Positions 14,725 to 64,000 of a DNA stretch of 64,000 bases are shown piece by piece. The notes beneath the pieces were generated by a model. That model searched no databases, was not told where the DNA came from, and worked only from the letters and a program-made list of their open reading frames with translations. Position 1 is the stretch's first letter. Every line of letters starts with the position of its first letter. Origin of the DNA: Nitrosopumilus sp. GTDB lineage: Archaea; Thermoproteota; Nitrososphaeria; Nitrososphaerales; Nitrosopumilaceae. A program made the translations under genes and the position numbers. The stretch covers positions 1,280,001 to 1,344,000 of the forward strand of contig OZ245003.1 of assembly GCA_965223425.1 (NCBI GenBank), in the 5' to 3' direction.

Positions 14725-15948
14725 TCATTTCTTTTTTCTAATTTGCTGTACTACCATTGGTAAAAATGCACCCACATCAGATACAATTCCTAGTGCTTGC
14801 CATGTTCCTCTGTCCATAAGTTTTGTAACCGTTGGCTGATTAATGTCTACAGCAATCACTTTCACATTTGCTGGAAGCATATTTCCTGTTGCAATGGAAT
14901 GGAGCATAGTTGAAATCATGATGACCATATTTGCATCTTTTAGTACTTTCTTGTATTCACGTTGCGCTTGAACAACATCGGTAATTACGTCTGGCAATGG
15001 TCCGTCATCTCGAATTGAACCTGCCAACACAAATGGTATCTCGTTTTTTACACATTCGTACATTATTCCTTTTGTCAATTTCTTAGTTTTTACCATGTTG
15101 GCAATAGATCCTGCCTTGAATACTGCATTGACTGTATCCATGTGGTTTCGATGTCCATGATATGCCAATGTGGCATCATGAACATTCATTCCTAGTGAGG
15201 TACCGAGTGTGGCATATTCTATATCGTGAACTGCAAGCGCATTACCTGCCAACACCCCATGAACATAACCCAACTTGATTAGCTCAGATACAGCATCATC
15301 TGCTCCTGTGTGTACTATTGCTGGACCTCCAACAATTACAATTTTTCCACCATTCTTTTTTGTGTTATAGATGTCTTCTGCTACTTTTTTGGCAATATGC
15401 TGGGTTGGTCTTTCACTTGAGCTTGAACTTCCCATGAATTCAAACACATTGACCCCTTCTCGTGGACGCTCAGGTGGAATAATCTTGACTCCTTTTTCTC
15501 CCACTACTATTTGGTCTCCTCTTTTCACATCCCTTACAGGCACACAGAATGCTTTACTTCCCTTTACAACTATACATTTGTCCATCATCATATTTTCCAC
15601 CTGAACCCACTTTCCTCTGTGAAAAACTTGTGTGTGGTTGTTTGTTGTACTGTAAAAATTATCAGGCATTACAAAGTTTTTTATGGATTTTTTTAATACA
15701 ACCTCTTTTTGGATTTTAGATACTGCCCCTTCTCGATAAATTGTTTCAAGAATCTCATCCAGATGTTTTTGGTTTTTTCCATTAACAAGCAATCTTGCGT
15801 AGGATTGATCTTTTTTTCTTCTGCCAATGTTGATTTCTTGTACCTGAAATTCTCCTTTTAGATCCATTATTTTATCAAAGATCTTAGTCAAAATCAAAGA
15901 ATCAATTATGTGGCCACTAACTTCGATCTCTTGAGAATATTTGATCAT
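14725..15948 (-). CDS. TIGR00300 family protein (LOR/SDH-like, ornithine cyclodeaminase-related)
   Basis: 'GHIIDS', 'FYSTTN', 'GNALAVHDIE', 'LAGSIRDDGPLPD', 'MLHSIATGNM'. Confidence 0.85.
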   Translation of the reverse strand: MIKYSQEIEVSGHIIDSLILTKIFDKIMDLKGEFQVQEINIGRRKKDQSYARLLVNGKNQKHLDEILETIYREGAVSKIQKEVVLKKSIKNFVMPDNFYSTTNNHTQVFHRGKWVQVENMMMDKCIVVKGSKAFCVPVRDVKRGDQIVVGEKGVKIIPPERPREGVNVFEFMGSSSSSERPTQHIAKKVAEDIYNTKKNGGKIVIVGGPAIVHTGADDAVSELIKLGYVHGVLAGNALAVHDIEYATLGTSLGMNVHDATLAYHGHRNHMDTVNAVFKAGSIANMVKTKKLTKGIMYECVKNEIPFVLAGSIRDDGPLPDVITDVVQAQREYKKVLKDANMVIMISTMLHSIATGNMLPANVKVIAVDINQPTVTKLMDRGTWQALGIVSDVGAFLPMVVQQIRKKK

Positions 15949-18786: not shown

Positions 18787-18935
18787 GAGGGCATAGTCTA
18801 GAGTGGACAAGGCGTTCAGATTCGCAGCTGTAAGATCGTGTGAATTTCTGACATCAATGCAAATAGAGGAAAACAGGTGGACAAGGCGTTCAGATTCGCA
18901 GCTGTAAGATCAGGGTTTAAATTCTTCTCTCACCA
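18787..18935 (+). pseudogene. degenerate tRNA-like sequence (possibly Arg-TCG) interrupted by a duplication plus insert
   Basis: Removing one repeat plus spacer gives GAGGGCATAGTCTAGAGTGGACAAGGCGTTCAGATTCGCAGCTGTAAGATCAGGGTTTAAATTCTTCTCTCACCA, with D-arm, T-loop-like GGTTTAAAT and CCA. Confidence 0.5.
18803..18911. repeat. repeat-spacer-repeat unit A
   Basis: Identical 35-nt GTGGACAAGGCGTTCAGATTCGCAGCTGTAAGATC at 18803-18837 and 18877-18911, with a 39-nt spacer. Confidence 0.95.
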
Positions 18936-23384: not shown

Positions 23385-23494
23385 GTCAAAATAAATCCCA
23401 CACAACTCCACAAATCCGAATTAACGTTCTTGTCCTTTCTGACCTCTTTGCCACATGGTCAAAATAAATCCCACACAACTCCACAAATCCGAAT
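23385..23494. repeat. repeat-spacer-repeat unit B inside the IS66 right end
   Basis: Identical 37-nt GTCAAAATAAATCCCACACAACTCCACAAATCCGAAT at 23385-23421 and 23458-23494, with a 36-nt spacer. Confidence 0.95.
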
Positions 23495-25095: not shown

Positions 25096-25203
25096 ATCTT
25101 GATGGCTTGCGCCGTAGAAAAAAAAATTTGACGTCATTTACAGAGGGGCTGATAGCAGAGGGAGAAAATCCCGATGGCTTGCGCCGTAGAAAAAAAATTT
25201 GAC
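25096..25203. repeat. repeat-spacer-repeat unit C near the IS5-like right end
   Basis: GATGGCTTGCGCCGTAG(A9/A8)TTTGAC at 25101-25132 and 25173-25203; extends to about 37 nt with ATCTT/ATCCC; 35-40 nt spacer. Confidence 0.9.
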
Positions 25204-29673: not shown

Positions 29674-30750
29674 CAGCTACACGAAATGTGCCCCAAGCCT
29701 GAGATCATGTAGGCGGTTTGGACTGGCGTATGGGAAGTGATTCCAGCTGCACCCTAAACGTCAGCATGGTCATGGCACTCTGCCTTTCAGTGCCATCAGA
29801 AAGCATTGCCCTGACAATCACCCATTCATTGTACAACCTTCTTGGGCATCAGAGTCTTTGGCCTTTTTCCTGTCAGTTATTATCATGGAATATTCAGCAG
29901 CAGAACCCAGGTTGTTTTCAATTACGTTCCCTGAGATTTTCCTTCTCTTCCCCTGTGCAAACTCTCGCAGGGCTGCCACTACGTTGTACGTATTCTTGCA
30001 CGGCATCAGAAACTTTACGTTGTTTTCCTGCAGCTTGTTTATCGCATCAACTGAGAAGAACTCACGGTCAAGCAACACCAGATGTGTCCTGATGCCCCCA
30101 TCCCTGCCATGGTTTTGAGGACGGCATCCACGTAATCAGGCACGGATTCAAGCATCTTCAGGTATGATGCGGCAAGAACGATACGCATCTTGTCATTTAC
30201 GCACTGGACTCATGTAACGCTCAAGTATTTGGTTCCGTTCTTGTATTTGGAACGTGTCAGCTCCGCCCCCGGTACCCTGTCATAGCGCGGTATGAGGTGC
30301 ATGTCAATTGCCATGCCCAGTCCTTTTTTTGGAAACCTGCCCAGTCTTTTGAGGGTTTCAAGATGCCTTGCTATCTGGCCTTCAAGCGTGTGCTGTATTG
30401 CATCCTGCTCATCCCTTGATTGCAGATGCAATCCACCTGTCAGACGGTGTGTTGCAGCGTTTGCGCCTTTGCGCATCTGCTACAGAAGAATCATGGTGGC
30501 AGCCTTTAGCATGCCGCAGTTCAGATCATCTGATCCAAACGTTGCGCTGTACCTGTCTGATGTGTTGGCGCATGCAAGCATGTTTTTGGCGCCGTCTGCA
30601 ACATCTTCATATATGCGTGGATTGTTTAGCAGTTTGCGGCCCTGTCTGGTTTTTTGTCTAAGCAACAGAAATCATGGGGTCGTACCCTCATTGATCTGTT
30701 TGCATTTTGTAGCCGATTTGGCCTGAATTAGAGCAGATTTCGCTTAGCTG
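29674..30750 (-). mobile_element. degenerate ISH3-like element
   Basis: IRs CAGCTACACGAAATGTGC / CAGCTAAGCGAAATCTGC; 5-bp TSD AAGTT; transposase fragments 'AIDMHLIPRYD' and 'LLDREFF'. Confidence 0.85.
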
Positions 30751-30832
30751 AAGTTTACGCATAAAATTTGACTAGAAATACAATTTTTGTATAGAAGAAG
30801 TCAAATACAGCATGTAACTAGCAACATTTCCA

Positions 30833-52922: not shown

Positions 52923-52996
52923 GGGGTTGTCGCCAAATTCACATCAAGCTGCCACCACCGGGGTTGTCGCCAAATTCACATCAAGCTGCCACCACC
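52923..52996. repeat. exact 37-nt tandem duplication of the IS terminus
   Basis: GGGGTTGTCGCCAAATTCACATCAAGCTGCCACCACC at 52923-52959 and 52960-52996. Confidence 0.95.
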
Positions 52997-61152: not shown

Positions 61153-61214
61153 ATTTTCCTCTGAACTGTAACCCGTAATTCGTGATTCTACAGATTCTGG
61201 ACGTGTGTGATTCT

Positions 61215-61324
61215 TTGTAGTAGAAAGTTTCCCCTCTTGGTAATTTCTACTTGCCATATCCAGATTTACAGTTCCAGAGGGGGGAGAATTGTAGTAGAAA
61301 GTTTCCCCTCTTGGTAATTTCTAC
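61215..61324. repeat. repeat-spacer-repeat unit D
   Basis: Identical 36-nt TTGTAGTAGAAAGTTTCCCCTCTTGGTAATTTCTAC at 61215-61250 and 61289-61324, with a 38-nt spacer. Confidence 0.95.
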
Positions 61325-61501
61325 GAAGTACTTCTGGGAAGACTACTGAAAACGCAAACTATATTATCAAACCTTTTCATAGCCATATATTGGAAAATAA
61401 TTCGTCTGCCAGAGTAGGCGTCTCTAGTCTAATAAATTACATGGATGCAAGCTGTTGTTGTTGTTGTTGTTGCCATGCGTCAAAATTATCTGCCTCCTTT
61501 C

Positions 61502-61617
61502 TGCACGTAACCTTTGATACTCCGCCCGCGGGGGGGGGGGACTCCAACTGCACCTTAAACGTCAGCATGGTCATGGCATGCACGTAACCTTTGATACTCC
61601 GCCCGCGGGGGGGGGGG
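61502..61617. repeat. repeat-spacer-repeat unit E
   Basis: TGCACGTAACCTTTGATACTCCGCCCGC(G11) at 61502-61540 and 61579-61617; 38-nt spacer matches 29740-29777. Confidence 0.95.
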
Positions 61618-61668: not shown

Positions 61669-64000
61669 TTGCGACGATTGATAAAACCGCCGTTGTTTGC
61701 AACAGTAGCAGCAACAGCAGCACTTGTTCTTCTGATTCCCCTTTGCATCTCCTTTGCGGATGCCACGATAGATTCGCCTGTTCCAGTCGCCTCTATCACT
61801 GACGGCCAAACCCATTCTAACGGCAAGACATTTGACGAGCTTCGACGTGCATGGGCCGTCACTACCGTGAATATGGACTCCAGCACGTACGCCTTGGTCG
61901 TAGCATACAGTGACCACGGAGTCCAGATAATAGACATTACCAATCCTGCAAACCCCGTCCCAGTAGCCTCTATCACTGACGGCCAAACCCATTCTAACGG
62001 CAAGACATTTGACGAGCTTCGAGGTGCACGGGCCATCACCACCGTGGATATAGGCATCAGTACCTACGCCTTGGTCGCATCATATAATGACCGCGGAGTC
62101 CAGATAATAGACATTACCAATCCTGCCTCGCCGGCCCCAGTCGCCTCCTTTGATGACGAGGACACCGTCACAGTTGGCAATGCAACCAAGACATTTGACG
62201 AGCTTCGAGGTGCACGAGGCATCACCACCGTGAATATGGACTCTAGTACCTACGCCCTAGTTGCAGCATACTTTGACGACGGCGTCCAGATAATCAACAT
62301 TACAGATCCCGCAAACCCCGTCCCGACAGCCTCCTTTGATAACGGGGACCGCGTTCCAGTCAACGGGACAAACAGGACATTCCACCTTGATGGCGCATGG
62401 GGCATCACCACCGTGAATACAGGCACCAGCACGTACGCCCTGGTCACAGCAGAAGTTATCGACGCCGTCCAGATAGTCGACATCACAGATCCCGAAAACC
62501 CCGTCCCGACAACCGCCTTTAGTGACGGGGCCACCGTCACAGTCAACGGGACAGACAGGACATTTGACGAGCTTGATGGTGTCAATGACATCACCACCGT
62601 GGATATAGGCACCAGTACCTACGCCTTGATCGCAGCAGAAATTGACAACGGCGTCCAGATAGTCGACATCACAGATCCCGAAAACCCCGTCCCGACAGCC
62701 TCCTTTGAAAACGGGACCAAGATCACAGTCAACGGGACAGACAGGACATTTGATGAGCTTATAAATCCACGAGGCATCACCACAGCAACTATCGGCACCA
62801 GTACCTACGCCTTGGTCGCAGCATATACTGACGACGGCGTCCAGATAGTCGACATCACAGATCCCGCAAACCCCGTCCCGACAACCTCCTTTGATGACGG
62901 GGACACTGTCACAGTCAATGGAACAACCAAGACATTTGACGAGCTTGACGGCGCACGAGGCATCACCACCGTGGATATAGGCACCAGTACCTACGCCCTA
63001 GTTGCAGCATACCATGACGACGGCGTCCAGATAGTCGACATCTCGTCAAGATCTATTGCAAACCAGCCTACTGTAGCCCCAACCCTCACGTCTGTTGAAA
63101 GGCACGACCCTGCCACACAGGACACAAACGATAACACCCCGACCTTCAGGGTAACCTTCAGCGAGGCAGTAAACAACGTGGATGAATCAGACTTTGAGAC
63201 CACAGGTAGCGCCACAGCGACAGTCTCTGCAGTCACCCCGGTGCCCGGCGGTACCGTATACCACGTGGAGGTGACAGTAACTGAAGACGGCATAGTGCGC
63301 CTTGGCATCGCGACAGCAAACGACATCAAGGATGTCACAGGCAACGCGCTGTCCGGCACGACACCTGCCGGGGCAGACGAACCGTACACCATAGATACCG
63401 TTGCCCCAACCCTTGCATCCGTTACAAGGCACAGCCCCACAGATGAGGACACAAGCAGCAGTATCCTGGTCTTCAGGGCCGCCTTCAGCGAGGCAGTCGC
63501 CAACGTGGATGAACCAGACTTTGTGATCCTGGGCAACTCCAATATGAGCGAGTTTACAGTCACCCCAGTGCCTTCCAGCTCCAACTCCACATACGAAGTA
63601 CGCGTATTTGTATTAGAAGACGGCACGGTCGAACTTGGCATCAATGCTACGGCAAACGACATCAAAGACGCCGCAGGCAATGCCCTGTCCGACACGGAAC
63701 CGACGGGGGACGACGAAACATACACAGTAGATAATGTTCGGCCAACCCTTACATCCGTTAAAAGGCACGAGCCTTTTACAGAAAACACAAACGATACCAC
63801 CCCGACCTTCAGGGTGACGTTCAGCGAGGCAGTAAACAGCGTGGACACATCAGACTTTGTGACCACGGGCAACGCCACTGCCACAGTCTCTACAGTAGTA
63901 CCGCTGTCCGGCGGTACGGCATACCACGTGGGGGTGACCGTGACTGCAAACGGCACAGTCGGCCTTTCCATCTCACCGGCAAGAGACATTGAGGACGCCG
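61669..64000 (+). CDS. large secreted surface protein with LVIVD-like beta-propeller repeats and Ig-like repeats (runs off the window)
   Basis: TTG start, signal peptide MRRLIKPPLFATVAATAALVLLIPLCISFADA; about 7 repeats of about 60 aa 'TYALVAA..D.GVQI.DIT.P..PVP'; then 'FRVTFSEAV..VD.SDF...D.AGN' domains. Absent from the ORF track because there is no stop. Confidence 0.85.
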   Translation, partial: MRRLIKPPLFATVAATAALVLLIPLCISFADATIDSPVPVASITDGQTHSNGKTFDELRRAWAVTTVNMDSSTYALVVAYSDHGVQIIDITNPANPVPVASITDGQTHSNGKTFDELRGARAITTVDIGISTYALVASYNDRGVQIIDITNPASPAPVASFDDEDTVTVGNATKTFDELRGARGITTVNMDSSTYALVAAYFDDGVQIINITDPANPVPTASFDNGDRVPVNGTNRTFHLDGAWGITTVNTGTSTYALVTAEVIDAVQIVDITDPENPVPTTAFSDGATVTVNGTDRTFDELDGVNDITTVDIGTSTYALIAAEIDNGVQIVDITDPENPVPTASFENGTKITVNGTDRTFDELINPRGITTATIGTSTYALVAAYTDDGVQIVDITDPANPVPTTSFDDGDTVTVNGTTKTFDELDGARGITTVDIGTSTYALVAAYHDDGVQIVDISSRSIANQPTVAPTLTSVERHDPATQDTNDNTPTFRVTFSEAVNNVDESDFETTGSATATVSAVTPVPGGTVYHVEVTVTEDGIVRLGIATANDIKDVTGNALSGTTPAGADEPYTIDTVAPTLASVTRHSPTDEDTSSSILVFRAAFSEAVANVDEPDFVILGNSNMSEFTVTPVPSSSNSTYEVRVFVLEDGTVELGINATANDIKDAAGNALSDTEPTGDDETYTVDNVRPTLTSVKRHEPFTENTNDTTPTFRVTFSEAVNSVDTSDFVTTGNATATVSTVVPLSGGTAYHVGVTVTANGTVGLSISPARDIEDA

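Follow-up and report, generated by a model that had tools for sequence, protein, structure and literature searches.

A short repeat-insert-repeat structure upstream of a surface-protein gene in a Nitrosopumilus genome, referred to here as unit E, very probably results from a single off-target (ectopic) integration of a spacer by Cas1-Cas2. Its insert is of insertion sequence (IS) origin, its geometry matches that of the resident CRISPR arrays, and it is one member of a genome-wide series of like events. We regard unit E as a natural instance of a phenomenon known from the laboratory, occurring at an unusual scale, and the wider pattern in the genome as more interesting than unit E alone.

The window is the whole stretch of 64,000 nucleotides that was analysed, and it corresponds to positions 1280001-1344000 of contig C1 of the genome (G000). 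Plain coordinates are window positions, while those prefixed by C1 are genome positions. Unit E is made up of three segments:

61502-61540: target-site duplication, copy 1; 39 nt, consisting of a 28-mer and a run of 11 G, and a perfect repeat of 61579-61617
61541-61578: insert; 38 nt, or 39 if an ambiguous G is counted, corresponding to nt 69-106 of an IS of about 1245 bp
61579-61617: target-site duplication, copy 2; a perfect repeat, followed on its 3′ side by sequence exactly as at the empty paralog described below

The two direct repeats are identical at 39/39 positions and are separated by 38 nt. In 100 of 100 dinucleotide-preserving shuffles, the repeat pattern and the insert-match pattern each gave fewer than two matches. 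Contigs of an independent public sequencing run (X5) cover 61502-61608 of unit E, and contigs of another independent public run (X6) cover 61156-61306 across the neighbouring unit D, in both cases with no differences. Because independent contigs span the junctions unchanged, the structure of unit E is not an assembly artefact. No empty allele of unit E or D was found among the contigs of the public runs, the short ones of which break at the repeats.

Unit E is an insertion plus a target duplication. A paralogous region of the same chromosome, C1:711740-712168, aligns with both flanks of the unit and contains one copy of the repeat (the 28-mer plus 14 G) and no insert. The presence of a single copy at this site shows that repeat E belongs natively to the region upstream of this family of surface-protein genes. 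The two features concerned are:

C1:711893-711931: single copy of repeat E at the empty site, from the paralog alignment
61669-63999, + strand: 5′ part of the surface-protein gene, with a TTG start, a signal peptide (read by eye) and LVIVD repeats; the gene continues past the end of the window

An earlier note on this DNA had placed the unit about 50 nt upstream of a large surface-protein gene, and the distance is indeed 51 nt before the TTG start at 61669. The upstream region of this gene took in both units D and E. The insertion of unit E moves everything upstream of 61502 farther from the gene by 77 nt and leaves the gene-proximal 39 nt unchanged. The region of unit E is common to relatives only across an upstream gene.

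A separate observation concerns simple-sequence tracts in the same upstream regions. At 61448-61470 and at 61530-61540 / 61607-61617, tract lengths are not the same as at the paralog (C1:711860-711935): for the (GTT) run the difference is 9 nt, and the poly-G run has 11 residues in the window against 14 there. The (GTT) and poly-G tracts upstream of these paralogous surface-protein genes may be slippage-prone and phase-variable.

The insert derives from an IS family that is also represented in the window:

29674-30751: degenerate copy of the donor IS family with an internal deletion; holds the 35/38 match at 29740-29777

The donor IS is about 1245 bp long, has terminal inverted repeats of 15-16 nt (nt 1-16), and is present in about a dozen copies, all of which are degenerate, the longest ORF remnant being about 210 aa. 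At nt 69-106, the segment found in unit E is near the end of the IS but outside its terminal inverted repeat. The earlier note had matched the insert to 29740-29777 at 35 of 38 positions with only transitions between the two, had the similarity stop at the repeat boundaries apart from one G, and had located the match in a degenerate IS at 29674-30750. These statements stand: transitions account for all three differences (positions 2, 7 and 15), the IS homology ends at the repeat borders with one ambiguous G at the left border, and the element, which extends to 30751, is an internally deleted copy of the IS. Its proposal that the insert is mobile-element DNA captured from a sister copy also holds up, because ten IS copies carry the 38-mer at 33-36 of 38 positions, and the best of them, at C1:1856004 (36/38), is closer than the window copy (35/38). 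The exact source that the note hoped for was not found among the IS copies, and all ten copies that carry the 38-mer differ from the insert at position 2. Given that a 100% source is missing among these ten, either the donor copy has been lost or the insert has mutated since. A Pfam search with four ORF remnants from two copies of the donor IS gave no significant match, and the label "ISH3-like" given to the element by the note is unsupported.

Unit E is not alone. The whole genome outside the arrays was scanned for direct repeats with at least 28 of 30 positions matching. Among repeat periods of 30-130 that are not multiples of 3, the distribution is nearly empty except at 71, 73, 74 and 77, and with tandem repeats removed, 31 of the 36 rows with a period of 40-110 fall at 71-77. 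The 29 loci obtained reduce to 27 independent units in 2.5 Mb, three of the loci being copies of one unit in a multi-copy element. Decayed units escape the scan, which makes this number a lower bound. The repeat sequence differs from unit to unit. Duplications are about 36-39 nt long overall and inserts 34-40 nt; measured as identity runs, most duplications span 36-37 nt and most inserts 36 nt. Empty sites are present within the genome for nine of the 27 units, D and E included, and the duplications measured against them are 36, 36, 36, 37, 37, 37, 37-38, 38 and 39 nt long. One unit measured in this way is itself located in a copy of the IS family from which the insert of unit E came. The duplications start with GT or end with AC in 13 of the 27 units, like the canonical GT...AC repeat ends (10% expected; binomial P = 6e-7); unit E is not one of the 13.

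Five of the units are in the window, unit E and four others:

18803-18911: isolated unit; 35-nt duplication, period 74
23385-23494: isolated unit; 37-nt perfect duplication, period 73
25096-25200: unit within a multi-copy element; three filled copies (the others at C1:252320 and C1:532092) and at least one empty copy (C1:2260306)
61215-61324: unit D; 36-nt duplication (61215-61250 and 61289-61324) around a 38-nt insert (61251-61288)

In unit D, nt 4-38 of the insert are identical at 100% to C1:1886434-1886468, and the unit has nine paralogous empty sites with an overlap of 34-36 nt, exactly 36 in seven of them. For the units at 18803-18911 and 23385-23494, a genome search found no source of the insert. 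A 37-nt perfect tandem duplication at 52923-52996 was considered as an integration lacking an insert and was rejected; its second copy is the terminus of an element with about 20 copies, and the structure is therefore a doubled IS end.

The locations of the units vary widely and include the interiors of long ORFs and of IS copies. Five units (C1:2401611, C1:849893, C1:1271799, C1:1714194 and C1:105005) have periods of 72 or 75 and are located within unbroken frames of 260-1117 codons, where, judging from the reading frames, they would add 24-25 residues to the products. Orthologous empty sites were sought for two ORF-borne units by DNA search in five relatives, and gave no match in one case and only a 53-nt match in the other, which indicates that the genes carrying these two units are not conserved at the DNA level. 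Five of the 27 units are within 100 kb of cas1; at P = 0.06, we make no claim of clustering there. No units, repeat copies or spacer matches were found on the second contig, C2 (123 kb), which has a G+C content of 47% compared with 41% for C1 and may not be part of this archaeon.

The genome contains the machinery that such a reaction would require. The main CRISPR array, C1:1357299-1362540, has 74 identical 36-nt repeats and 73 spacers of 34-38 nt, and is about 16 kb (15.7 kb) from unit E. It is directly followed by cas4, cas2, cas1, a gene for a 557-aa protein with no Pfam match, cas7, cas5, cas3 and cas6b, which is a type I-B layout. The resident cas1 encodes 331 aa (Pfam score, 216 bits) within an intact cas4-cas2-cas1 set, and the sole other trace of Cas1 in the genome is a fragment at C1:1379849. 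A second array, C1:1682473-1682945, has seven repeats of a different 36-nt sequence and no cas genes, and is located in a region with genes for TraG/VirD4-like ATPases and a TBP paralog. Its repeat is the same as that of the 131-repeat array of a relative, G009. Five ectopic units cluster 24-48 kb downstream of the second array; the cluster of units at 1672-1732 kb, like the origin cluster discussed below, was defined after seeing the data.

The length of the unit E insert (38 nt, or 39 with the ambiguous G) fits the canonical spacers of the resident array. Its duplication is less typical: at 39 (or 38) nt, and with a variable poly-G run inside it, it exceeds the 36-nt canonical repeat by 2-3 nt. 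With its period of 77, the longest of the series, and duplication ends that are not GT/AC, unit E is an outlier among the units. As a speculation, the G-tract may register as shorter to a distance ruler.

In the mechanism we propose, a 38-nt prespacer would have been released from an IS copy, close to its end. Its two 3′-OH ends would then have attacked the two strands of non-CRISPR DNA at positions about 38-39 bp apart, upstream of the surface-protein gene. Gap repair would have duplicated the intervening target and left the order target copy, insert, target copy, just as at a leader-repeat junction. In canonical adaptation, Cas1-Cas2 is described as joining the 3′ ends of the prespacer to both borders of the first repeat, which is then duplicated by repair (PMC5737086). 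This known reaction accounts for every feature of the unit, if the enzyme sometimes uses non-CRISPR DNA.

We infer that the enzyme responsible is the resident type I-B Cas1-Cas2, which has the only intact Cas1 of the genome. It is possible instead that the integrations were carried out by a lost or mobile system that used the repeat of the second array. The units of G009 (see below) point to a Cas4-Cas1 system, because the 36-nt-repeat array that they match belongs to a Cas4-Cas1 fusion, and the repeat of that array is common to the second array of G000. Unit E would presumably yield no crRNA and be a tolerated by-product. The harm that self-derived inserts would do in a real array would explain why they persist mainly at ectopic sites.

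Self-derived inserts are in fact frequent among the units. For 16 of the 27 inserts the chromosome contains a matching sequence elsewhere (14 strong and two weak matches, four of them at 100%) and 11 have no match, compared with one of 79 canonical spacers that matches its own chromosome. That one canonical spacer, C1:1362329-1362362, is near the leader end of the main array and is identical at 34/34 positions to C1:198216-198249. Among the sources of the inserts, one falls in the window:

15643-15676: source (protospacer) of the insert of the unit at C1:1271799; match 33/34

At least three inserts are derived from IS elements. In addition to unit E, these include the unit at C1:1924360, whose insert begins 5 nt from the end of an apparently intact IS of about 1376 bp (about 30 long copies, 426-aa ORF). 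Four of the 12 single-copy sources are within 34 kb around orc1/cdc6 (P = 1.5e-5, for an interval chosen after seeing the data), a gene that is flanked by both PolD subunit genes. Directly upstream of it, at C1:147700-148260, there are ORB-like repeats in the form of two direct copies and one inverted copy of an element containing GAGTGGAAA, beside an A/T-rich stretch; by analogy with the layout of archaeal origins, this region is likely to be a replication origin. One of the insert sources is located in this orc1/cdc6 upstream spacer.

The earlier note had suggested that the flanks of the source be read for a PAM. Read by eye, the flanks of 14 protospacers show no consistent PAM, even when the units are oriented by their GT end. 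The single canonical self-match contributes only one flank to such a reading. The missing PAM runs against the expectation that a type I-B system with Cas4 selects one.

The sources resemble those reported for naive self-adaptation in Pyrococcus furiosus; the hotspots described there are transposons, CRISPR arrays, rDNA and oriC, and their use is connected with free DNA ends (PMC5737086). Three of these four classes are represented among the sources of the ectopic inserts, namely IS elements near their ends, the origin region and, in G009, array DNA. A difference is that the P. furiosus spacers, as described there, entered real arrays with a CCN PAM, whereas the inserts considered here are at ectopic sites and have no PAM that we could see.

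A match to Cas1 is present in 24 of 61 genomes of the genus. The complete genome of one relative, G010 (1.36 Mb), has no Cas1, and with the same scan settings it has at most one unit-like locus. Two partial genomes, G009 and G044, were scanned with a slightly looser threshold. G009 is the closest relative as judged by one shared gene. It has two arrays, one with 131 repeats of 36 nt and periods of 71-77, which adjoins a gene for a Cas4-Cas1 fusion, and the other with 102 repeats of 30 nt and periods of 64-70. The 398 kb scanned in G009 contain 11 isolated units, all with periods of 71-74 and duplications of about 36-38 nt. None of the 11 has a 30-nt duplication, and all fit the 36-nt-repeat array. 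In one of them (C1:1872101-1872210 of G009), the 36-nt insert is identical to the genome's own array DNA at C1:1995547-1995582, made up of 35 nt of a canonical spacer and one further base; the insert came either from the array itself or, with a shift of 5 nt, from the invader that also supplied the spacer. For another unit of G009, the orthologous empty site is found in G000 (overlap, 38), and the insert of a third matches the cdc6 gene of G000. The Cas4-Cas1 fusion of G009 is only 27% identical to the Cas1 of G000.

The other partial genome, G044, has three cas1-like genes of about 410 codons within 65 kb (C1:1416863-1482301 of that genome). In the 372 kb around these genes we found no CRISPR array and one candidate unit, and G044 was dropped as a positive control. 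The Cas1 proteins of about 410 aa are probably casposases. A casposon measures kilobases, has terminal inverted repeats and duplicates roughly 14-15 bp of its target. Their integration is comparable to the events described here in that a Cas1-family integrase makes a target-site duplication, but in unit E the insert is 38 nt and the duplication 39 nt long. Across the three relatives compared, the occurrence of such units goes together with that of Cas1 and of 36-nt-repeat arrays; the comparison comprises one complete genome that lacks Cas1 and two partial genomes, and kin are not independent.

There are other scenarios by which a structure like unit E might arise. IS sequence in a genome rich in IS copies could suggest a rearranged IS relic, with repeat E borne by the IS and contiguous with the insert, or with the insert as a solo terminal repeat left after excision. 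The earlier note had itself named contiguity with the IS as the scenario that would overturn its reading, and that scenario fails. The 28-mer of repeat E without its G-run has three occurrences genome-wide when up to five mismatches are allowed; two are those of unit E, the third is that of the empty paralog, and none lies within an IS copy. Moreover, the insert is nt 69-106 of the IS rather than its terminal inverted repeat, the IS sequence that flanks the 38-mer on both sides is missing from unit E, and the same geometry is found in 14 other units with non-IS inserts. The idea of an IS relic is already refuted, and we give it next to no probability. It is also highly improbable that unit E is a working mini-CRISPR or a regulatory RNA locus that provides a guide against the IS or controls the surface-protein gene. 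Such a role would suit a unit 51 nt upstream of a gene start with a second unit (D) 250 nt further upstream, and an insert that is complementary to an IS family. However, the best ungapped identity of repeat E to the two canonical repeats is 11/36 and 15/36, so that its recognition by Cas6b is unlikely, and the repeat is a different one in every unit. An Rfam search of unit E returned no matches at E values up to 1, CRISPR-DR included, its folding is not unusual (z-scores of -1.1 to +1.5), and the units are found in all kinds of places, long ORFs and IS copies among them.

A third scenario is a Cas-independent process that adds about 72 nt in the form of a short copy of the genome's own DNA together with a target duplication. 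This could account for the copying of own DNA by the units, the absence of a visible PAM and the clustering of periods near 72, and it gains some room from the fact that the Cas1-less comparison is a single complete genome. We nonetheless consider it improbable. At most one unit in the 1.36 Mb of G010 stands against 27 in 2.5 Mb here, and in G009 all 11 units follow the 36-nt-repeat array, with one insert overlapping a canonical spacer. The enrichment of duplication ends for the canonical GT/AC also argues against such a process. At the nine units with empty sites, the lengths of duplication and insert show no mutual compensation (r = +0.34). Finally, the inserts fold no better than random genomic 36-mers. 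Off-target integration by Cas1-Cas2 remains the explanation that we favour for unit E.

Such integration has precedents in the laboratory. In E. coli that over-produces Cas1-Cas2, off-target integration is reported to give rise to "neo-CRISPR" loci (Nivala, Shipman & Church 2018, Nat Microbiol 3:310). For natural genomes, the preprint 10.1101/148544 speaks of "circumstantial evidence" in two other species and calls the frequency and role of the process in nature unclear. The neo-CRISPR loci and the units described here have in common a spacer-sized insert outside the arrays, a target duplication of about repeat length, and an adaptation module in the cell. They differ in that the former were obtained in engineered E. 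coli, while the latter occur in a natural archaeon at about 27 per genome, with empty sites, identified sources and a second species, and in that the duplication of unit E is 2-3 nt longer than the repeat. Off-target integration is also described for P. furiosus Cas1-Cas2 in vitro, at sites that share features of the repeat (PMC6698737). Both cases involve an archaeal enzyme, non-CRISPR DNA and repeat-like features in the target, which here are the GT/AC ends of the duplications; the in vitro events were in plasmid DNA, whereas those reported here are fixed in chromosomes, and unit E itself lacks the GT/AC ends. Among the papers listed by our literature searches, none describes a genome-wide natural series of such events.

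The series in this genome brings together empty sites, identified sources, a preference at the target ends, and relatives with and without Cas1. For genome annotation, it explains odd repeat-insert-repeat structures that array finders skip or call false mini-arrays. It also makes it possible to test how often the integrase misses the array in nature, which DNA it takes up in the absence of selection by interference, and whether the events disrupt genes or seed new arrays.

Finally, on balance we lean towards the view that off-target spacer integration is a frequent natural mutational process in this lineage, and that it has left a fossil record of naive self-adaptation. We count at least 10 fixed events per Mb in this genome and 11 in 398 kb of its sister species. 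In this view, segments of 71-77 nt would have been inserted into promoters, IS copies and open reading frames. The record of self-adaptation would consist of IS ends, the replication origin and the array's own DNA, taken without a PAM; real arrays cannot keep such a record, because self-targeting spacers there would be harmful. Every unit would, in addition, be a potential seed of a new array.
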